DNA of 64,000 nt from the NCBI GenBank assembly GCA_046331705.1, contig JAXLQJ010000008.1, positions 1 through 64,000 on the forward strand, in the 5' to 3' direction. This document shows positions 53,013 through 63,467 of this stretch, piece after piece; the first letter of the stretch is position 1; every line of letters begins with the position of its first letter. The stretch is from a bacterium (lineage in GTDB: Bacteria; JADJOY01). The position numbers were made by a program, and so were the translations under genes. Under the pieces are notes generated by a model that had not been told where the DNA came from, searched no databases, and saw only the letters and a program-made list of their open reading frames with translations.

Positions 53013-54374
53013 TCAGAACTCGACGGATCCGCCCGCCACGAGCCGATGGGCCGAGAGCGTGCTGGTGGCCTCCGTGCCCTCGAACGGGCCACCGGGGCCG
53101 ACCCATGGCCCGGTGATCGAATGCTCGAAGCCGTGCGAGTACGCGATCGACAGATCGAGGCCATCGAGCACGTGCAACGTGCCGCCCACGCTGAGGTGGT
53201 GCTGGATGATCGCCGGCGCCGCCACGTTGAAGAAGCTCAGTCGATCCTGCACCGGATGCTCGTTCCACGCGTAGCCGCAACGTAGCGCCATCCCCTCCAT
53301 CGGCTTCCACTCGATGCCGGCGTTCACGCCGAAGATGCTCGACCAGCCGAAGCCGCGCACGGCGCTCGTGGGATCGAAGCCCTCGTCGTCGAACCCGGCG
53401 GTGTTCGCGTAATCGACGTAGCGGCCGTCGAGCGCGATCAGCACGTTCTCGAGCGGCCGGTACGCGACGCCCACCGACAGGATCATCGGGAAGTCCATGT
53501 CGAACTCGATCTTCCGCGGCATGCCGGACTCGTCCGCGGAGTTGAAGCCGTATTCCTGGAACCATTGCGGACTCTTCACCGTCAGCCCGAACGCCCAGTC
53601 CTCCGTGGGCGTCAGGTAGGCACCCGCTTGCACGCCCACGCCCCACGCCGCGTCGCCGCGCGCCGCATCGGGATAGGTTCCGAGCGGACCGCCCTGTGCG
53701 TTGTCGGGCGGCGCGGCGGGAAACGGCGTCACGGCGAGCGTCGACCACGCCATCGTCGGCGCGATGCCGAGCGCCAGCCAGGGCGTCACCTGGTAGGCGA
53801 GCGTCGGCGAGAGCTGCAGCATCTGGAAGCTCGACGCGATGCCGCCGAAGCCCATGCCCTTCGGCGGCTGCGGCGTGGTGATCGGATTGGTGGGATCGTA
53901 CGGATAATCGACCCCGAAACCGCCGATGCCGATCGCGCCCACGCCGAACGCCCAATCCGATCCGGCGAGGTGGTGGACGGTGCCGAAGCTCGGAATCGGC
54001 AACAGGTCCGTGTCGCTCTTGGTGCGTCCCGACAGCGTCTGTGTCGGAAAGAGACCGAAGAAGGCGCCCTTCTCGAGGGTCGACTCGAGGTGAGTCGTGG
54101 GCGCGAACGCCTCGAACGAGGCGCTCACTCGCGAACGTGGAAACGCCACGATCGACGCCGGGTTCCATTGCAGGGCACCGATGGTGTCGAGCGGCGCGGC
54201 GGTACCGGCGCCGCCCATCGACACGTTCACCGGCCCGATCGCCTCCAGCACGTGGCCGATCTGGGCCGACGCGGGAACGGCGAGCGCCACCAGACCCAGG
54301 GCGAGCGCGATGACGAGCGTGGTCGCGCGGCGATCCACGACGTGCAGGAACCTCGTGTCACGTGTGTGAAGCAT
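53013..54374 (-). CDS. FadL/OmpP1/TodX family outer-membrane channel
   Basis: Signal peptide; SMGGAG..A..D....WNPA hatch motif; GIGGFGVDY; C-terminal Phe. Confidence 0.85.
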   Translation of the reverse strand: MLHTRDTRFLHVVDRRATTLVIALALGLVALAVPASAQIGHVLEAIGPVNVSMGGAGTAAPLDTIGALQWNPASIVAFPRSRVSASFEAFAPTTHLESTLEKGAFFGLFPTQTLSGRTKSDTDLLPIPSFGTVHHLAGSDWAFGVGAIGIGGFGVDYPYDPTNPITTPQPPKGMGFGGIASSFQMLQLSPTLAYQVTPWLALGIAPTMAWSTLAVTPFPAAPPDNAQGGPLGTYPDAARGDAAWGVGVQAGAYLTPTEDWAFGLTVKSPQWFQEYGFNSADESGMPRKIEFDMDFPMILSVGVAYRPLENVLIALDGRYVDYANTAGFDDEGFDPTSAVRGFGWSSIFGVNAGIEWKPMEGMALRCGYAWNEHPVQDRLSFFNVAAPAIIQHHLSVGGTLHVLDGLDLSIAYSHGFEHSITGPWVGPGGPFEGTEATSTLSAHRLVAGGSVEF

Positions 54375-54417
54375 GGGGAGACACCTCCCCGCTGCACGGC
54401 GAACCGTGGCGAGCGGA

Positions 54418-55104
54418 TCAGCAACCTTCCTTCTTCTTCTTGGGCGCAGCCGGTGCGGCCGACGATGGTGCGGAGGGCGGCGACGGGATTGGCGCGGCCT
54501 CGGCAAGCGACGCCGCCTCCTCCGCTGGTGCAGCGTCCGCGCCCGTGGGCGCCGTGGCAGCGGGCATCGCCCTCGGCGCGCCGCCGAAATGCCGGGCAAC
54601 GTTCACAGCGCGCTCGAAGAGCGCCCGCTCCTCGGCGGAATCGCCTGCCGGCGGGGTCGGATGGAGCACCTCGTTCTTCCAGGCGTCGATCCCGCCCGCG
54701 AGCGTGGCCACACCGTGGTAACCGTCCGCCACGAGCAGCATCCACGCTTGCGTTGCGTGCGCCTCTCCTTCGCCGTAGAGCAAGAGCTTCTCGTTTCGGG
54801 GCAGCGAGCCGGCGGCGACGTCGGCCAACGCCACGTTCTCCGCGCCGGGGATGTGGTTCGTGCCGAACGCCGCCGCATCGCGGAGGTCGACGAGCCGGTA
54901 ATCGCTTCGCCCCTCGATGATCCACGACGCGAGGGTCGTCGCCGTCACGTGGTCCTCGCCGCGCGCGACGATCCGCGCGAGCTGCGCCCGATGGATCACC
55001 ACCTTGGGGCCGCGCGCGGTGGTCGCGAAGAGCGCGCCTGCACCGAGCACCAGCGCCAGAGCCGCGAGCTTCTGATTGAGCGTCCACTCCTTCGGCGCCT
55101 TCAT
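54418..55104 (-). CDS. Membrane-anchored rhodanese-domain protein with C-terminal Cys arm
   Basis: N-terminal hydrophobic helix; LVDLR...HIPGA...LAGGIDAW rhodanese signature; A/P-rich linker ending KKKKEGC. Confidence 0.85.
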   Translation of the reverse strand: MKAPKEWTLNQKLAALALVLGAGALFATTARGPKVVIHRAQLARIVARGEDHVTATTLASWIIEGRSDYRLVDLRDAAAFGTNHIPGAENVALADVAAGSLPRNEKLLLYGEGEAHATQAWMLLVADGYHGVATLAGGIDAWKNEVLHPTPPAGDSAEERALFERAVNVARHFGGAPRAMPAATAPTGADAAPAEEAASLAEAAPIPSPPSAPSSAAPAAPKKKKEGC

Positions 55105-55106
55105 GA

Positions 55107-55700
55107 TCAGCCTCGCGTCGCGCCGAAGCGCCGCTCCAGCGCCGCGGCGCCGACGAATCCACCAAGCGCCAGCAGCACCACCGCGAACACCACCAGGCCG
55201 TACGGCAGGCCGGTCGCCTGCGGGATGGTCACCGCGCCCATCGAGCCGGCGTTGAACAGGCCTTCGAGCCAGCGAAACGCCGCGGCGAAACCCACGGTCC
55301 CGGCGAAGACGCCGGCGACGAAGGCCATGCCGTCGACCCGTCCCGTCGCCGCCGAGACCACGGACGTGCCCGGGCAATAGCCGCCCACCACGAATCCGAC
55401 CCCCAGGATCAGCCCGCCGACCACCTGTGCGATCCAATACGTGGGCACCAGGTACACGAGCGAGAGATCGAGGAACCCGCTCCACGCCAGATACGTGACG
55501 CCGAGCATCGCCGTCACGATCGCGGTGAACATCACTTTGAAGACCGCCAGATCGTTCAAATAGAACTGCGACACGAGCTTCTTCGCGCTGCCGAACCCCG
55601 CGCGCTCCAGGAAGAAGCCGAAGCCGATGCCGATGGCGAGCGCCAGCACCAGGCTGGTCTGATCGCCGAAGAGCCCGTACTTGAGCAGCGGCGCGTTCAT
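55107..55700 (-). CDS. YeeE/YedE sulfur-compound transporter family protein
   Basis: FGFFLERAGF, GGLILGVGFVVGGYCPGTS. Confidence 0.9.
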   Translation of the reverse strand: MNAPLLKYGLFGDQTSLVLALAIGIGFGFFLERAGFGSAKKLVSQFYLNDLAVFKVMFTAIVTAMLGVTYLAWSGFLDLSLVYLVPTYWIAQVVGGLILGVGFVVGGYCPGTSVVSAATGRVDGMAFVAGVFAGTVGFAAAFRWLEGLFNAGSMGAVTIPQATGLPYGLVVFAVVLLALGGFVGAAALERRFGATRG

Positions 55701-56281
55701 CGCCATTCCCTCCGCAGAAACCAGGCACCCGCGTAGGCGCCGGCGAACACACAGAGCATGAAGGCCCAGCTCCCCAGGTTGAGGAGCGAGCCACCGGTGA
55801 GCGCTTGACCGCTGGTGCAACCGCGCGCCAGGTGCGCGCCGATCGCCATGAGCGCGCCGCCCCCGAACGCGAGCGCCAGTCGGCCGCGCACCGAGATGCG
55901 CGGCCCCCGCTCGACGGTGACGAGCATGCGATGCGCCAAGAGCCCGGAGATCACGGCGCCCGTCGCCACTCCCAGCACCTCGAAGACCAGCCACGACTGA
56001 AGCGGGTGACCGTCGACCAGGTAGGGCCCGAGAAAGCCGTTCGCCGCCGCGGTCGATGGCGCCACCAGCGACGCCAGCCAGGCCACGGTCGCCGTCACCG
56101 CACCCGAAGCGCCCAACCCACGCCCCACCAGCACGAAGGCCGAGAGCAGCACCAGGCCGAGACCGATCCCGGCGAGATAGGGATTCATGTAGGGCCGAGC
56201 CACGGATGCGGCGTGCTCGGTCGTGGCAGCGGCGCTGCCGAGTCGCTCTCCCGTGGACGTTTGCGCGAGCGTCGCTTCCAT
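55697..56281 (-). CDS. YeeE/YedE sulfur-compound transporter family protein
   Basis: PYMNPYLAG, GLGASG, GAHLARGCTSG. Confidence 0.9.
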   Translation of the reverse strand: MEATLAQTSTGERLGSAAATTEHAASVARPYMNPYLAGIGLGLVLLSAFVLVGRGLGASGAVTATVAWLASLVAPSTAAANGFLGPYLVDGHPLQSWLVFEVLGVATGAVISGLLAHRMLVTVERGPRISVRGRLALAFGGGALMAIGAHLARGCTSGQALTGGSLLNLGSWAFMLCVFAGAYAGAWFLRREWR

Positions 56282-56299: not shown

Positions 56300-57265
56300 T
56301 CAGCCCACCGGCCAGTGGCTCGCCTGGCCCGCGAACACGATCACGAATCGGAGCGCCAAGCCGCCGAGCATCACCAGGACCGGAGCGATGGGCGTGTGCG
56401 CGACCCGGTGCGACACGGCGAGCGATTGGATGAGGAGCGGCACGACGATCCCCAAGCCCACCACCCCCACCCAGAAGATCGCGGTGAACGGCCCGCCGAG
56501 GACCAGCTCCGCCGCGGCGGCGTGCGCCGCGCTCGCGCTCGCGAGGCCGATCAAGAGCAGCGCGATGAGCACCAGCTCGGCGGCGAGGAAGAGATTGTCG
56601 ATCCGCGCCATCGCCTCGCGCTCGTCGGCCCGCGGCGAGACCCAATGGGAGAACGCGGCGCTGCTCGAGAGCCCCGAGGCGAGAAAGAGCGGCCCCAGCA
56701 GCGCGCTCGACCACAGCGGCCGCGCGCCCAGCGACGAGAGCAAGATCCCCGTGTAGATCCCGAGGCCGATCCCGACCAGGACCGCGGTGGTCGCGAACGC
56801 ACGCATCGCGGCGGGGTTCTCGACCACCGCGTCCGCGAAGCGCGCGACGGGTCTCACCCGTGCCAGCCATTCGCGCGGCGCACCCAGCACCGCTCCCAGC
56901 GCGAGCACCGGATAGACGAGGAGCAGGATCCACGCGCCCCACGACATCGGCGAACGCGGCTCGAACGTCGTGTAGAGCCGCCACACGTAGGCCTTGTGCT
57001 CGAGGTCGAGGAAGAGCGCCCCCATCCCGAGCGAGATCAACCCCAGCGCGAGCGTGAAGAACGCGCTCGAGCCGAGCGAGAGCCCGCGTGCCGAGCGCGG
57101 CGACGCCCGTCCGGCCAGGATCGCGGCCCCGGACAGCACCAGGATTCCCGCGGTGAAGCCGCCCAGGAACAAGTAGACCGGGATCTCCCAACCCCACGCC
57201 GTGAGATGGGGCTCGACCAGCGCACTGTGGGCCGTGACGTAGTGCTCGACGTAGCGCTCGCCCAT
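56300..57265 (-). CDS. psrC: Polysulfide reductase membrane anchor (NrfD/PsrC)
   Basis: WGWEIPVYLFLGG, LFLDLEH, SPMSWGAW, IYTGILL, LRFVIVFAGQ. Confidence 0.9.
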   Translation of the reverse strand: MGERYVEHYVTAHSALVEPHLTAWGWEIPVYLFLGGFTAGILVLSGAAILAGRASPRSARGLSLGSSAFFTLALGLISLGMGALFLDLEHKAYVWRLYTTFEPRSPMSWGAWILLLVYPVLALGAVLGAPREWLARVRPVARFADAVVENPAAMRAFATTAVLVGIGLGIYTGILLSSLGARPLWSSALLGPLFLASGLSSSAAFSHWVSPRADEREAMARIDNLFLAAELVLIALLLIGLASASAAHAAAAELVLGGPFTAIFWVGVVGLGIVVPLLIQSLAVSHRVAHTPIAPVLVMLGGLALRFVIVFAGQASHWPVG

Positions 57266-57269
57266 GGCA

Positions 57270-57809
57270 TCACCCGAGGTAGAAGATCTGCGGCTCGGTG
57301 CCGGCTTCCGGCAGCACCGCATGGTGCTCGCGGGAAGCGACCAGCCGGCTCACTTCGGAAGCGGGGTCGTCGAGATCGCCGAAGTGCATGCAATGCGTCG
57401 GGCAGACCGAGACGCACGCGGGGTCCTTGCCCTGCTCGACGCGGTGAATGCAGAAGGTGCACTTGTCGGCGTAGCCCTCGGGGTGGATGTAGCGAGCATC
57501 GTACGGGCACGAGGCGACGCAGGCCTTGCAGCCGATGCATTCGTCGTGGTTCACGAGCACCACACCGCCGAAGGAGTGGACGTGGCTCGCGCCGGTCGGG
57601 CAGCAGGCGACGCAGGGCGGCCGATCGCAGTGATTGCAGCGCTCCGACTGGATCGAGAGCGCGAGCGTCGGGAACGTCCCCGCGAGCGAGGTCGCGATCC
57701 AGTCGCGGTGCATCCCGTCGGGAGTGGAGTTCTCCGTCTTGCACGCGACGACGCAATCCATGCAGCCCACGCAGCGTCGGGTGTCGATGACCATTCCGAG
57801 GCGGGCCAT
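57270..57809 (-). CDS. psrB: 4Fe-4S electron transfer subunit (NrfC/PsrB)
   Basis: CVGCMDCVVAC, CNHCDRPPC, CIGCKACVASCPY, KCTFC. Confidence 0.92.
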   Translation of the reverse strand: MARLGMVIDTRRCVGCMDCVVACKTENSTPDGMHRDWIATSLAGTFPTLALSIQSERCNHCDRPPCVACCPTGASHVHSFGGVVLVNHDECIGCKACVASCPYDARYIHPEGYADKCTFCIHRVEQGKDPACVSVCPTHCMHFGDLDDPASEVSRLVASREHHAVLPEAGTEPQIFYLG

Positions 57810-57812
57810 GGC

Positions 57813-60026
57813 TCAGGCCTCTCTCTCGAGGGTGACGAAGTTCACGTTCATGCCGGTGCCGCCCATGAGCGGATCGGTGCGATAGCGCGTGACCAGCCCG
57901 GCATCGCTGGCGCCGCGGCCCAGTGCGCTGCGCAACATCGGCGAGGTGTGCCCGAAGCCGTGGACCAGATAGACGCAGTCGCCGCGGATCGCTTCCGTGG
58001 CGCGCACCTTCACGGGGTTGCTCAGCGCACCGTCCTGGTTCCTGAGCCGCACCCGATCCCCGGTGCGTAGCTCCATCCGTCGCGCCACGCTCGCGTTCAG
58101 CCACACGTCGTTCTCGCCGATGGCCTGCATCAGCACCGGGTTGGTCTGGGTGCGGCTGAACGAGTGCACCGGCGCCCTGCCGAAGAGCAGCCGGAACGAG
58201 CCGACCGGGCCCGCCGCGGGGCGTGTGTACCTGGGGACGGGATCGAAGCCATGGTCGGCGAGCTGCTGCGACCAGAGCTCGATCTTGCCGCTCGGCGTGG
58301 GGAACGACGGCGTCACGCCGTCCTCGAGATAGACCGGCACCGGCTTCCCGCGCACCAGCCCCTTCGCTTTCAGCTCCTCGAAATCGAGCCCCGCCGCCTG
58401 CACGCGGTGCGCGAGATATTCCTGGAGGTTCTGCCAGGGGAAGTACGCCTCGAGCCCGAGCTTTCGCGCCAGCTCGCGCGCGATCCACCAATTGGGCTTC
58501 TGATCGCCGGGTGCTTCCACCACCGGCTGGCGCAGCGCCACGAACGGCTCGCGGAAGAGCTCCACGTTGAGCTCGTCGTGGCGCTCGAGATACGTGGCCT
58601 CGGGCAGCACCACGTCCGACCAGCCCGCGATCTCGCTGCCGATCACGTCCACCGTCACCAGCAGATCGAGCTTCTGGATGGCGCGAATCGTCTCGGCTTC
58701 GTTGGGGAGCGCGTGGATGAGGTTGGTGGCGTACACGAACCAGCCGCGGATCGGATACGGCTGATCGGTGAGGGTCGCGTCGCGGATGCCGGTGGTGATC
58801 GCCTCGCTCGCGAACGGATAGCGCTTGCCGGGATTGTCGACCTTCCCTTTCGCCGACTTGGGATAGGGCGGATAGGGATACGCCGGCACGTCCATGCTGG
58901 ACGGGACGTAGAAGCCGCCCTTGCGTCCCCAGCTGCCGAGCAGCGCGTTCAAGAGCGCGACGGCGCGCCCGCGTTGGGCGTCGTCGCCGTACCAGGTGGC
59001 GTGGCGTCCCGGGTGCACCAGCGTGGCTGGCCGATGGCGCGCCATCTCGCGCGCGGTCTCGCGGATCAGCGCGGGCTCGATCCCCGTCTCCGGGTACGCC
59101 CACTCGGGCGTGTAGCGCGCGACCGAGGCGGCGAACGCATCGAAGCCGTACGCATGCTGCGTGAGGTAGTCCTCGTCGTAGCGCTTCTCCGTGACCAGCA
59201 CGTTCATCCACGCGAGCAGCAGCGCCAGATCGGTGCCCGGCCGGATGGGCAGGTAGTGCTTGGCCTTGCTGGCGGCCACCGAGAAGCGCGGATCGACGAC
59301 GATCACGCTCGCGCCGCTGCCCACCGCGTCGGCGAATTCCTGCACCTGGGTGTTGTGCATGTTCTCGCCGAGGTGCGAGCCGATCAGCACCAGGCAGCGC
59401 GCGTTGCGGATGTCGGTGCGCTCCGGCGAGCCCACGCCTTCGCCGAACGTGAGCTCGAAGCCCACGTCCCGAGGTCCGCGGCACTGAGCGAACGACGGCG
59501 CGGCGACGTTGGGTGTGCCGTACGCCTTCAGGGTGTGCTTCAAGAACGTGCCGCCGATGCCGTGACTGAAGAGCGCCACCGCCTCGGGGCCGTGCTCCGC
59601 CTTGATCTTCTGGAGCCTGTCGGCGACGTACCCGAGAGCCTCGTCCCAGGTGACCTCGGCCCAGCGCTGCGCGCCGCGCTCGCCACGCCGAAGCAGCGGC
59701 GCGCGCAAGCGGTCCGGATCGAAGTGTGCGCCGACACCGCCGGTGCCACGCGGGCAGAGCCGGCCGCGCGACAGCGGATCGTCGGGATTGCCCTCGATCT
59801 TCCAGAGCTTGCCGTCGCGCACGGTGGCGATGGCGTTGCACTTCCAGAAGCACACGTCGCAGAACGTCGGGACCGTACGCAGCCCGCGCTCGGCGGGTGC
59901 GAGCGCCGCGCTCGCGCCCGGCACGAGCCGCTCCGCCGTTCCCGCCGCCGCGGCGGCGCCGACGGTCGCGCCGCTGATCTTCAGGAAGCGTCGTCGCGAA
60001 AGCTGATCGGTGACTCGAGCCGCCAT
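57813..60026 (-). CDS. psrA: Mo-bisPGD polysulfide/thiosulfate reductase catalytic subunit (PsrA/PhsA/SreA clade)
   Basis: Tat motif SRRRFLK; FS0 motif CDVCFWKC...LCPRG; putative Mo-ligand PSFAQCRG; HPGRH; PTPSGKIEL. Substrate not determinable from motifs. Confidence 0.88.
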   Translation of the reverse strand: MAARVTDQLSRRRFLKISGATVGAAAAAGTAERLVPGASAALAPAERGLRTVPTFCDVCFWKCNAIATVRDGKLWKIEGNPDDPLSRGRLCPRGTGGVGAHFDPDRLRAPLLRRGERGAQRWAEVTWDEALGYVADRLQKIKAEHGPEAVALFSHGIGGTFLKHTLKAYGTPNVAAPSFAQCRGPRDVGFELTFGEGVGSPERTDIRNARCLVLIGSHLGENMHNTQVQEFADAVGSGASVIVVDPRFSVAASKAKHYLPIRPGTDLALLLAWMNVLVTEKRYDEDYLTQHAYGFDAFAASVARYTPEWAYPETGIEPALIRETAREMARHRPATLVHPGRHATWYGDDAQRGRAVALLNALLGSWGRKGGFYVPSSMDVPAYPYPPYPKSAKGKVDNPGKRYPFASEAITTGIRDATLTDQPYPIRGWFVYATNLIHALPNEAETIRAIQKLDLLVTVDVIGSEIAGWSDVVLPEATYLERHDELNVELFREPFVALRQPVVEAPGDQKPNWWIARELARKLGLEAYFPWQNLQEYLAHRVQAAGLDFEELKAKGLVRGKPVPVYLEDGVTPSFPTPSGKIELWSQQLADHGFDPVPRYTRPAAGPVGSFRLLFGRAPVHSFSRTQTNPVLMQAIGENDVWLNASVARRMELRTGDRVRLRNQDGALSNPVKVRATEAIRGDCVYLVHGFGHTSPMLRSALGRGASDAGLVTRYRTDPLMGGTGMNVNFVTLEREA

Positions 60027-60187: not shown

Positions 60188-60189
<2 letters not shown>
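60140..60189. promoter_or_regulatory. Putative enhancer (UAS): nested palindrome with GAAACGTTTC boxes
   Basis: CATGAAACGTTTCGT-CAAT-ACGAAACGTTTCATG has perfect 15-bp arms (60140-60173); a third box GAATCGTTTC lies at 60180-60189. Confidence 0.75.
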
Positions 60190-61696
<1,507 letters not shown>

Positions 61697-61724
61697 CGGA
61701 CCCACCTCGCGGATGACGACGACG

Positions 61725-63467
61725 TCACGTCGCGCCGCCTCCGCGGCAGGCCGCGGCGCGACGGCCGAGCGCTGCGGCGAAGTCGCGGTAGATCGGGCTT
61801 GGGCTCTCGTGGCAGCCGAGGCAGGCGCCCACCCGCAGGATGCGCCGCTGCTCGGCCGCGTCGAAGGGGCGAGCACCCGTGCGAGTCGAGAACGGTGGCG
61901 CCGGCGGATCGGCGAGAAAGCGCGTCCACGCATCCCGCGGGAGACCGTCGGCGGCAGGCTCGTGTCGCGGGACGAAGCGCGGCTCGGCGGCACCGAGCTC
62001 GAGCGTGCCGTCGCCGATCCCGAGAGCCACCGCCGATCGGTGGCAGCTCGCGCAGTCGCGGGCCTTTCGGCCGGTCTGGTGCGCGGCGAGCGGTGCGAAG
62101 AGCCGCCGCTCGGTGCGCTGACCGTCGTGCTCGAGGGTGAGGATCATCCCGGGGACGAACGTGGTGACGCGACCATTCCCATCGACACCGAGTGTAGGAG
62201 CGTCCGCGGAGAAGCTCCACCCGCGCTCCTCCCATTCCTCGGCATTGCTCGCCTCCCGCGTGGCGCGGGTGTGGCAGCCGAGGCAGCGCGGCGCCAGCGC
62301 GGTATGGCACGCGTCGCACGAGAGGCGCGCGTGAGCGCCGCCGTGCGGCTCCGCGCGCGGCGTGGGCGCGGGTGGGCGCGGCCGGGCGCCGCGCTTGCCG
62401 CGGACGTCGAGACGACCATCCGCGCGCACCCACGCACCGAGCAGCACGCCGCCCTGCGCGCCCGCCACGTAGCGCCGCCGGGACGCGGCCGCGCCCCACA
62501 GCGAGCGCGCGATCACCTGGCTCGCGCGATCGAGCGCCGCGAATGGCCGCACCCGTGAGTCGGGCACGCGGCCGTCGGGGGATTCCAGGTGGCAATCCAC
62601 GCAGCGCGAGCGAACCGCATCCTCCTGGTGCGCGTGCGAGCGGAAATCGCCCATGACGTCGTCGACGGTGTGGCAATCGACACAGCCGAGGCCGGCCGTG
62701 CGATGGACGTCCGCGGGGATCGACTCGAGAACGCGACCATCGGGGAGGATGCGTCGCGATCGGCCGGGCTCGGGCGAGAGCGCGGCGTGCCCGGCGTCGA
62801 GCTCGGTCCAGCCCGCGTAGCTGAGCGAGATCCTCCCCGAGCGGGAATGGCAACCGAAGCACGCGTCGTCGCCGATCCGCAGGTCGACGGCCGGGTGGCC
62901 CTCGCCCACGCGCTCGCGGAGGTGACACGCGAGGCAGCCGCCGCCGCGGCGGGAAGCGGGTTCCGCGAGACCGCGCGCGTCCTTGGGCGCGCCGAGATGA
63001 CACGTGGAGCAGAGCTCGGCGGCGTGGCGATCGGCGGCGCGCGCCGGATCGAGCGCGTCGATCCGCGCGGTCGCGCCGCCGTCGGGAGTGTCCGCCTCTG
63101 CGAAGACGAAGCGATTCACCGCCACCAGCCCGCCGTTGGTGGTCATGAGGGAGCTCGCGACGCGCGTGTACGCCTCCGCGTGGCAGCGCGCGCACGGCAT
63201 CGCGGCATTCGCGAGATCCGAGCCGGGCCAGGGCACCATGCCGGCGTGAGCGGCACCCTTCTCCGCGGCCTGCGGATCCCCGAGATGACAGGACACGCAG
63301 CCGATGCGCCTCGGATCGTGCGCCCGCCCCAGACCGTGAACGAGCGCCGCGTGACAGGGCACGCAGCGCTCCGCTGCGCGACTCGCCGTGCCGCCGAGCA
63401 GCAGCGACGCCGTCACCACCGCGGCGCGAAGCCACGCTCGCGAGCGCCCGTCCGCCGCCGAAACCAT
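61725..63467 (-). CDS. Exported 12-heme cytochrome c
   Basis: Signal peptide; 12 CxxCH motifs counted (CVPCH, CVSCH, CARCH, CSTCH, CLACH, CFGCH, CVDCH x2, CDACH, CLGCH, CASCH, CLGCH). Confidence 0.92.
   Translation of the reverse strand: MVSAADGRSRAWLRAAVVTASLLLGGTASRAAERCVPCHAALVHGLGRAHDPRRIGCVSCHLGDPQAAEKGAAHAGMVPWPGSDLANAAMPCARCHAEAYTRVASSLMTTNGGLVAVNRFVFAEADTPDGGATARIDALDPARAADRHAAELCSTCHLGAPKDARGLAEPASRRGGGCLACHLRERVGEGHPAVDLRIGDDACFGCHSRSGRISLSYAGWTELDAGHAALSPEPGRSRRILPDGRVLESIPADVHRTAGLGCVDCHTVDDVMGDFRSHAHQEDAVRSRCVDCHLESPDGRVPDSRVRPFAALDRASQVIARSLWGAAASRRRYVAGAQGGVLLGAWVRADGRLDVRGKRGARPRPPAPTPRAEPHGGAHARLSCDACHTALAPRCLGCHTRATREASNAEEWEERGWSFSADAPTLGVDGNGRVTTFVPGMILTLEHDGQRTERRLFAPLAAHQTGRKARDCASCHRSAVALGIGDGTLELGAAEPRFVPRHEPAADGLPRDAWTRFLADPPAPPFSTRTGARPFDAAEQRRILRVGACLGCHESPSPIYRDFAAALGRRAAACRGGGAT

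Follow-up and report, generated by a model that had tools for sequence, protein, structure and literature searches.

The 64,000-nucleotide stretch of bacterial DNA analysed here (hereafter the window) carries on its minus strand, at 54418..55104, a gene that we call rhd-tail, which encodes a 228-amino-acid, membrane-anchored pseudo-rhodanese (Rhd) that ends in a cysteine. With confidence a little above even, we take this tailed rhodanese to be the periplasmic, tethered persulfide-carrier arm of a sulfur translocon built on a split YeeE channel; the best reading of the window itself is that this translocon is plugged into a Thermus-type polysulfide reductase. Loss of the rhodanese loop cysteine together with presence of the terminal one is a trait of the family and not an accident of one gene.

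The tailed rhodanese and its conserved tip

A Pfam scan of the Rhd protein gives one domain, the Rhodanese homology domain PF00581, at residues 59–145 (54670..54930, minus strand; expectation value (E) 7.2e-14, 52.5 bits against a cut-off of 22.2), and NCBIfam gives weak rhodanese-domain matches that are all below threshold. An AlphaFold2 model built on 36 homologues has a mean predicted local distance difference test score (pLDDT) of 86.9, with ten-residue blocks over residues 41–180, which take in the domain and a following extra helix, averaging 91–98. In Foldseek the modelled domain matches the single-domain rhodaneses BH2092, Alr3790 and YgaP and the rhodanese domains of persulfide dioxygenase fusions, all with probability 1.00. 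A score above the curated cut-off and an alpha/beta fold modelled at pLDDT above 90 place the protein in the rhodanese superfamily.

By its sequence it is not a catalytic rhodanese. The former active-site loop (residues 108–121, LLYGEGEAHATQAW; 54742..54783, minus strand) lies in a stretch that reads K-L-L-L-Y-G-E-G-E-A-H-A at residues 106–117, and in profile alignment to solved rhodaneses the catalytic cysteine of 6mxv ('...FYCGGGFRS', '...LYCGSGFRS') falls on the column of residue 111, which is glycine here (codon 54772–54774). The arginine of the 6mxv loop (GGGFRS) aligns with His116, so that the first loop position has no nucleophilic cysteine and the cationic loop Arg/Lys is also absent; the basic residues cluster instead beside the terminal cysteine. 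That residue, Cys228, is the only cysteine of the window protein and is preceded by K222–K225, E226 and G227 (tip at 54421..54441; TGA stop at 54418–54420). An earlier note on this DNA had described a Cys-less loop, LLLYGEGEAHA, and a lone cysteine at the very end of the chain, after an Ala/Pro linker and a poly-Lys patch, and we find both as it described them.

At the other end of the protein is a transmembrane helix (residues ~11–31; 55012..55074, minus strand), its sole hydrophobic segment, with the conserved pattern LNQKLA...LG.GALF; AlphaFold2 draws it at residues 9–26 (pLDDT 89–96), and L13, L20, G21 and A24 are at least 90% conserved. A cleavable signal peptide was considered and rejected as the main reading, since the helix is conserved and is reused as the transmembrane link between the domain and the channel half YeeE_b in natural fusions (see below). 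We read it as a probable uncleaved signal anchor with a cytoplasmic N-terminus, and the membrane tether suggested in the earlier note thus holds up.

The arm begins after the domain. A family-specific extra helix (residues 157–172) followed by a conserved F-G-G-x-P-R motif forms its base (54571..54636), and a hypervariable linker rich in Ala, Pro and Ser (residues 179–221; 54442..54570, both on the minus strand) joins the base to the tip. From about residue 180 the modelled tail, some 48 residues that are Ala/Pro-rich and end in KKKKEGC, has no secondary structure, and its block pLDDT of 54–70 is that of a disordered chain. Linkers of this Ala/Pro-rich kind resemble the swinging-arm linkers of 2-oxo-acid dehydrogenase E2 chains. 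We note that one contig from an RNA library (run X19) differs from the window at 54466–54475 by two substitutions and an in-frame three-nucleotide GGC insertion in the linker; its tip-coding bases are the same as those of the window, which fits a linker that tolerates changes in length.

The terminal cysteine is conserved far beyond the window. A word-indexed search gave 76 homologues of 190–312 amino acids, 75 of which end in Cys (74 as EGC and one as QGC), the sole exception being labelled 'partial' by its source; in 67 of the 76 it is the only cysteine. Scanning 185,579 species genomes, one per species, with one peptide pattern gave 159 relatives, and EGC is followed by a stop in 76 of the best 80 loci, which were kept. 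The rhd gene runs off the contig in two of the other four (L023 and L064), in L033 the linker is frame-shifted and K-rich EGC words follow out of frame just downstream, and L040 has frame shifts in the tail and in the neighbouring gene YeeE_a; the shifts in or near the linker of L033 and L040 may be assembly errors. An exhaustive search of 1.84 billion cluster representatives returned 2007 matches at E <=0.001, 494 of them at E <=1e-10. Among the best 150 of the 2007, 120 end in Cys and 103 in Gly-Cys (EGC 63, RGC 28, GGC 5, DGC 4, and others), with a third type of tail exemplified by ...EEKLRDGC. Of the 30 that have no terminal Cys, three are giant proteins with multiple rhodanese domains and another three carry Cys third from the end, and many of the rest, judged by eye, resemble short or off-frame predictions.

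Column statistics from an alignment of 66 complete members show how unevenly the protein is constrained. The column of residue 111 holds Ser in 55 members, Gly in ten, Ala in one and Cys in none. E226, G227 and C228 are invariant, and 65 of the 66 have four to six Lys or Arg among their last ten residues. Mean pairwise identity is 0.73 over the last nine residues and 0.60 over the domain, against 0.24 over the linker; this is a constrained tip on an unconstrained tether, as the sequence of a swinging arm would be expected to look, and the flexible arm of the earlier note is visible in it as a disordered, hypervariable linker with a conserved tip. The loop itself remains conserved despite the loss of its cysteine, as Y-S/G-E/D-G-G-I-H-S/A-A-Q-A-W, with Gln119 in all 66 members and His116 in 62. 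A terminal (E/R)GC and the missing loop cysteine are therefore conserved across phyla, which is what the earlier note had expected of homologues.

A cysteine at the end of a chain might instead attach a lipid or a cofactor, bind a metal or act as a sorting signal, and a polybasic stretch followed by a C-terminal Cys does resemble the prenylation-type membrane-targeting tails of eukaryotes. We know of no bacterial periplasmic machinery that lipidates a C-terminal cysteine, no gene of such a kind is conserved in either of the two cassette types described below, and the basic cluster disfavours the binding of a metal cation; we regard this explanation as highly improbable.

The stop codon after Cys228 invites another explanation, in which TGA would be read as selenocysteine, forming a Cys-Sec redox pair, with a downstream hairpin as the selenocysteine insertion sequence (SECIS) element. 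The window does have a TGA with a stem-loop directly after it. The stops found directly after EGC in homologues are, however, TGA in 48, TAG in 20 and TAA in ten, and those of the loci with RGC-type tails are TGA in 67, TAG in ten and TAA in one; this mixture excludes selenocysteine read-through. A selenoprotein would show a conserved in-frame TGA together with selenocysteine machinery, and the 95.7%-complete window genome has no SelD above cut-off. Read-through past the rhd TGA would also enter the start of the next gene. The hairpin is itself unremarkable (z −1.6 in the window and −1.57 in the closest relative, L001). As a side observation, this stem-loop (54375–54417), which lies between rhd and a FadL-like gene, recurs with compensatory changes in L001, and another hairpin overlaps the ribosome-binding site of that gene.

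The split YeeE channel and two types of cassette

Directly upstream of rhd are two genes for half-size YeeE/YedE proteins. YeeE_b (55107..55700, minus strand, 197 amino acids) corresponds to the N-terminal half of a YeeE protein plus an H7-like fifth helix, and YeeE_a (55697..56281, minus strand, 194 amino acids) to the C-terminal half; they match positions 1–146 and 163–309, respectively, of the Sulf_transp model PF04143. Cys109 of YeeE_b and Cys155 of YeeE_a are each invariant (66 of 66) and in profile alignment occupy the positions of C91 and C293 of StYeeE, the YeeE protein of Spirochaeta thermophila. The two genes thus have the marks of a half-size YeeE pair, namely adjacent halves that each carry a conserved cysteine.

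The link between these halves and rhd is close. Both lie directly upstream of rhd in 73 of the 74 loci with more than 1.3 kb of upstream sequence (among the best 80 of 159), and most of 75 tabulated loci show either a four-nucleotide overlap between the end of YeeE_b and the start of rhd or a distance of a few nucleotides; in the window the rhd start and the YeeE_b stop share the four nucleotides ATGA. Three species genomes (L020, L053 and L040) have in-frame YeeE_b–rhd fusions, eight of the 13 long cluster representatives that were scanned have a Sulf_transp N-half, then Rhodanese, then a Cys end, and the ESM Atlas lists a 686-amino-acid cluster as 'Rhodanese-like/Sulphur transport'. All of the fusions seen are to YeeE_b, and none among them joins a tailed rhodanese to a subunit of the polysulfide reductase Psr. 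The window genome (8.17 Mb, 95.7% complete) has one copy of the rhd family and no Sulf_transp genes other than the two halves; TusA/YeeD-type proteins (PF01206) were found neither in this genome nor as a domain of Rhd itself.

Co-folding of YeeE_a, YeeE_b and Rhd with 66-row alignments gave an ipSAE interface score of 0.44, compared with 0.16 for the best of three controls; the runs share at least 86% of their contacts, and partner pLDDT is at least 67. The mark used was reached in calibration by 116 of 157 solved complexes and two of 215 mismatched pairs, and scores of <=0.60 by only 18 of the 157 solved complexes and by both of the passing mismatches, so the model lends weak support to an association for which the natural YeeE_b–rhd fusions already set a high prior.

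Upstream of YeeE_a in the window are the genes of a predicted polysulfide reductase of the PsrABC type. PsrA (57813..60026), the molybdopterin catalytic subunit, has a twin-arginine signal (SRRRFLK), Pfam Molybdopterin domains and a TAT_signal match (E 0.0015, under cut-off), and over residues 7–732 it matches PsrA of Thermus thermophilus (2vpw_A) with E 2.4e-216 and 723.6 bits; the NCBIfam PhsA model scores 499.7 on it, below that model's cut-off of 694. PsrB (57270..57809) is a four-cluster ferredoxin subunit (Fer4_11), and PsrC (56300..57322) is an NrfD-type membrane quinol subunit (PF03916, E 4e-43), all three being on the minus strand. The close Thermus match, the iron-sulfur subunit and the NrfD-type membrane subunit together identify the operon by sequence as PsrABC, with polysulfide as its predicted substrate. 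The PsrC start is uncertain, since its longest open reading frame overlaps the end of psrB by 53 nucleotides and an in-frame ATG at 57265 removes the overlap.

The order PsrA, PsrB, PsrC, YeeE_a, YeeE_b, Rhd is found in 55 of the 56 EGC-type loci with more than 5.2 kb upstream (again among the best 80 of 159). The one locus of the 74 in which the YeeE halves are not directly upstream, L051 (7686–8555), has the 5' end of psrA abutting a truncated rhd without a membrane helix but with ...KKRKEGC at its end; both YeeE halves and the remainder of psrABC are missing, and it looks like the remnant of an internal deletion of the cassette. This remnant also adjoins a sigma-54 activator gene.

A sister subfamily keeps the tail and does not keep Psr. 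A second peptide pattern, matching proteins that end in RRRGC, gave 387 metagenome relatives, of which the best 80 loci (L086–L165) were kept. The order YeeE_a–YeeE_b–Rhd is present in every one of these RGC loci with more than about 220 nucleotides upstream, and Psr is present in none of the 13 with more than 4.7 kb upstream. A two-domain (tandem) rhodanese gene lies upstream in all 27 RGC loci with room for it, as compared with none of the 80 EGC-type loci, and a class-V aminotransferase (NifS/MOCOS-like) gene lies downstream in all 46 with room. The eight tandem rhodaneses inspected, by eye, all begin with what looks like a signal peptide and carry the canonical catalytic loop C-H-I-G-Q-Q; in five NifS-like proteins of these loci, also inspected by eye, no signal peptide was seen. 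A representative cassette (L110:4994–8955) contains the tandem rhodanese, YeeE_a, YeeE_b, the RRRGC pseudo-rhodanese and the NifS/MOCOS-like gene. Two-component regulators of the LytTR or OmpR type are often found upstream of RGC cassettes.

As the triad is kept where Psr is absent, the constant unit is YeeE_a/YeeE_b/Rhd, whose periplasmic partner can be either Psr or the secreted catalytic rhodanese. Gene overlap, the fusions and the Psr-less RGC subfamily make the split YeeE channel, not Psr, the obligate partner of the tailed rhodanese. The earlier note had the arm hand sulfur to PsrA or to the YeeE cysteines; gene linkage favours the YeeE half of that proposal and not Psr as a fixed partner, and a hand-off to PsrA would be at most one of several uses of the arm.

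The same comparison bears on the idea that Rhd is a Sud-like polysulfide-binding protein dedicated to PsrA, with an arm that captures polysulfide or S8-derived sulfur and threads it into the PsrA funnel and YeeE halves that are mere neighbours or a dock. The near-constant place of the EGC subfamily after psrABC, the closeness of PsrA to a structurally characterised polysulfide reductase and a remote rhodanese-domain match to Sud (1qxn, E 3e-4) all suit such an idea, and a thin terminal Cys after an invariant Gly would suit a deep funnel. It does not account for an RGC subfamily with tail Cys and YeeE halves and no Psr, nor for fusions made only to YeeE_b, and the control genome of T. thermophilus, whose PsrABC structure is solved, has no Sulf_transp match, so Psr does not require the module. 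We consider this dedicated role quite unlikely.

Another explanation would make Rhd a scaffold or sensor that carries nothing, its tail being a redox plug, for example through a gating disulfide between Cys228 and Cys155 or a tail-to-tail disulfide dimer. The domain does lack the catalytic Cys, dead rhodanese domains are common (Alr3790, domain 1 of 1yt8), linkage and fusion to YeeE would suit a regulatory subunit equally well, and a single Cys in the periplasm readily forms disulfides. A plug has no obvious need for a hypervariable arm of ~40 residues with a conserved basic cluster, however, and the constant presence of the module beside an enzyme that makes or uses sulfane sulfur suits hand-over better than gating. 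Neither point is decisive, and we think such a non-carrier role rather unlikely.

Topology and a candidate route for sulfur

In StYeeE the N-terminus faces outward and the C-terminus inward, and the chain consists of helices H1–H6, a linker helix H7 and helices H8–H13; its cysteines C293, C91 and C22 lie on the periplasmic side, at the centre and on the cytoplasmic side, respectively (PMC7449682). With five hydrophobic segments, K/R-rich loops at 35–45 and 111–121 and a K/R-rich C-terminus, YeeE_b is accordingly predicted to match H1–H7 with its N-terminus out and its C-terminus in; YeeE_a is K/R-rich at 122–134 and at its C-terminus, which predicts that both of its ends are inside. The Rhd anchor helix has a mean flanking charge of +2.24 on its N side and −0.03 on its C side, and fused proteins have this helix right after the cytoplasmic end of YeeE_b. 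Both features place the Rhd domain and arm very probably in the periplasm, where they would be on the same side as Cys155, the exported PsrA and the secreted tandem rhodanese. Because the halves of the PmpAB type, at ~130 amino acids, are described as having no H7 (PMC11582611), the extra YeeE_b helix and the Rhd anchor helix would form an added hairpin peculiar to the triad module.

In the mechanism that we favour, the tailed rhodanese would be the third subunit of a three-gene module with YeeE_a and YeeE_b, anchored in the inner membrane by its N-terminal helix beside the fifth helix of YeeE_b, and the loop Cys, now Ser or Gly, would be functionally replaced by the Cys at the extreme C-terminus, which presumably carries sulfur. 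The Lys/Arg cluster would hold the tip Cys in its thiolate form and stabilise a persulfide or polysulfide anion, standing in for the cationic persulfide-stabilising loop of ordinary rhodaneses, and the invariant Gly and the chain end would leave the thiol small enough for a funnel or vestibule. Loaded with sulfane sulfur at a periplasmic enzyme, the tip would swing to the periplasmic mouth of the split YeeE, at YeeE_a Cys155 (StYeeE C293), and the sulfur would move inward by way of YeeE_b Cys109 (StYeeE C91); flow in the reverse direction would also be possible. The retained Cys-less loop may serve as a cradle for the loaded tip or as a docking site for a partner.

The periplasmic enzyme would differ between the subfamilies. 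For the EGC type it would be PsrABC, exported by the twin-arginine translocation (TAT) system, and the arm would present or collect polysulfide sulfur in the manner of Sud, or accept sulfur instead if PsrA were running toward sulfide oxidation. For the RGC type it would be the secreted tandem rhodanese, with its normal catalytic Cys. Both alternative partners are periplasmic sulfane-sulfur enzymes, which supports a carrier. As for direction, we favour import over export only slightly, because the paired half-size YedE1/YedE2 proteins, each of which needs its single Cys, are reported to import and not export zero-valent sulfur (PMC10812762). A hand-over from periplasmic SoxYZ to YeeE-like SoxT importers has also been proposed (PMC11582611).

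Several points weigh against a carrier arm that feeds YeeE. The NifS-like enzyme of the RGC cassette would be a natural cytoplasmic source of persulfide for export and so fits the opposite direction just as well; a lone thiol in an oxidising periplasm may sit in a disulfide; persulfidation of Cys228 is something we infer for every member of the family; and the co-folding result is weak. The missing Sulf_transp match in T. thermophilus counts here too, and the cassette is patchy, being present in two of five genomes of the window's genus (74–96% complete), which makes it accessory. StYeeE has an outer vestibule of positive charge (PMC7449682), which would repel a poly-Lys tip if the same is true here, and direct Cys-to-Cys transfer through the channel has been questioned for YeeE cysteines that are ~7 Å apart (PMC11582611).

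That the module handles selenium, or another chalcogen or an oxyanion, with a Psr-like selenite-type reductase and Se carried on the tail Cys, seems to us very unlikely. The YeeE halves do match selenium-related YedE models of NCBIfam, weakly (E 2e-6 to 1e-4, far under the cut-offs); comparative genomics has reportedly tied YedE to selenium, and a Psr-like respiratory selenite reductase is known. The absence of SelD above cut-off from the nearly complete window genome speaks against selenium, as do a PsrA that is nearest to the T. thermophilus polysulfide reductase and an alternative partner that is a tandem rhodanese of the thiosulfate-sulfurtransferase type.

A bolder version of the carrier-arm reading can also be put forward, although we think it improbable as a whole: a hitherto undescribed modular translocon in which a covalent persulfide chain would run from the periplasmic enzyme to Cys228, Cys155, Cys109 and a cytoplasmic acceptor, the catalytic Cys having moved to the arm tip, and in which PsrABC may run as a quinone-reducing sulfide dehydrogenase. 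If this were true, the conserved loop (S/G-E/D-G-G-I-H...Q) would be a docking cradle for the loaded tip, PsrABC as a sulfide dehydrogenase would build persulfide directly on the arm, and sulfide oxidation and assimilation could proceed independently of sulfide:quinone oxidoreductase (SQR) and of Sox in these bacteria, among them aerobic Gammaproteobacteria and Acidobacteriota from soil and sludge.

Setting of the cassette and comparison with known systems

The same-strand gene order in the window is PsrA, PsrB, PsrC, YeeE_a, YeeE_b, rhd and a gene for a FadL/TodX-family outer-membrane channel with a signal peptide (53013..54374, minus strand; PF03349, E 1.3e-17), which lies 43 nucleotides downstream of rhd. 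A FadL-like gene is found directly downstream of rhd on the same strand in eight of the 80 EGC-type loci and anywhere in the locus in 17, and we count it as accessory to the cassette; since channels of the FadL type transport hydrophobic compounds, one might speculate that this one could admit elemental sulfur. On the other side, directly upstream of psrA, are a sigma-54-dependent activator gene (60188–61993; Sigma54_activat, HTH_8), which likely regulates the operon, and then a multihaem c-type cytochrome gene (61725–63467), both on the minus strand. Three studies have metatranscriptome libraries with short contigs that match the operon at no less than 95% identity, some of them over rhd (X15 records 2 and 3 at 54845–55140, X19 records 23 and 24 at 54364–54768); none is counted as evidence of expression, as such libraries may contain DNA.

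The tailed-rhodanese family is large and widespread across bacterial phyla. EGC-type loci are labelled in their records as Acidobacteriota, Gammaproteobacteria, Eisenbacteria, Ignavibacteriota, Bacteroidota, Gemmatimonadota, Myxococcota, Calditrichota and Methylomirabilota metagenome-assembled genomes, and the DNA sequencing runs that contain at least half of the window's sampled words come from activated sludge, sludge, anaerobic digester or wastewater, or are labelled plainly as metagenome. A carrier arm is a plausible interpretation of this family. The route of sulfur from the periplasm to YeeE-family importers has been described as poorly understood (PMC11582611). The triad may supply the periplasmic hand-over that is missing from this route, a proposal that can be put to the test, and it occurs naturally in two settings, one with Psr and one with a secreted rhodanese of the thiosulfate-sulfurtransferase type. 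The module also matters for the interpretation of PsrABC-type gene clusters in metagenomic surveys of the sulfur cycle.

Members of the family have been seen before under other names. Thiel et al. 2019 (PMC6338057) report that in Ca. Thermonerobacter (Bacteroidota/Ignavibacteria relatives) psrABC is followed by two DUF395/Sulf_transp genes and one annotated 'rhodanese-related sulfurtransferase', with psrABC related to those of Melioribacter roseus and Ignavibacterium album; they say nothing of the missing loop Cys or of the tail. Source annotations of rhd-tail genes read 'rhodanese-related sulfurtransferase' or 'hypothetical', and the former is misleading because the canonical catalytic Cys is absent. 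Searches of full-text literature, which exclude subscription journals and supplements, gave no description of a rhodanese with a terminal-Cys tail.

Among proteins of known function, Sud of Wolinella succinogenes (PDB 1QXN) shares the rhodanese fold, at the level of the remote domain match given above. Sud is a periplasmic protein that serves a PsrABC-type polysulfide reductase and carries sulfane sulfur on a single canonical loop Cys. It is soluble, whereas the rhd-tail protein has a conserved membrane helix and no loop Cys, bears its Cys at the end of a disordered arm and is tied to the YeeE halves, and so is not of the Sud type. SoxYZ likewise works in the periplasm, where it carries covalently bound sulfur on a Cys close to the tip of a flexible C-terminal arm and serves several partner enzymes. 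The C-terminal motif of SoxY is GGCGG. SoxY differs from Rhd in having another fold and a SoxZ partner and in being soluble, while Rhd ends in a Lys/Arg-rich x-G-C-COOH; Rhd has no SoxY or SoxZ family match in Pfam or NCBIfam, and our searches gave no sequence relation between them. The term 'SoxY-like' in the earlier note is thus apt as a functional analogy and fails for the rhodanese fold, the partner and the EGC-COOH motif.

YgaP of E. coli (PDB 2MRM, 5HBL) also combines a single rhodanese domain with transmembrane helices, and the domains match with E 3e-8. YgaP keeps its catalytic loop Cys, has its membrane helices C-terminal to the domain and faces the cytoplasm; unlike the rhd-tail protein it has no arm and no YeeE linkage. 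Alr3790 (PDB 3HIX/3ILM) has the rhodanese fold without a loop Cys, its loop reading Y-G-A-G-D-E-Q-T in the alignment, but inactive rhodanese domains of that type have no membrane anchor, FGG-x-PR motif, arm or terminal Cys.

On the side of the channel, YeeD/TsuB (TusA-like) is a small Cys-bearing sulfur-transfer partner of YeeE/TsuA that is obligatory and sometimes fused to it (PDB 8J4C, 8K1R), as Rhd is to YeeE_b, but it has the TusA fold and acts at the cytoplasmic face, whereas Rhd has the rhodanese fold and a terminal Cys and is most probably periplasmic. YedE1/YedE2 of the PmpB/PmpA type resemble YeeE_a and YeeE_b in being a half-size pair with one invariant Cys each at the C91 and C293 positions, and PmpAB/YedE1E2 are described as importing zero-valent sulfur (PMC10812762, PMC11582611). 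PmpA and PmpB have four helices (PMC11582611), whereas the window YeeE_b has a fifth and the third, tethered subunit is always present. By analogy, then, the rhd-tail protein resembles Sud, SoxY and YeeD in its putative function and is a member of none of their families.

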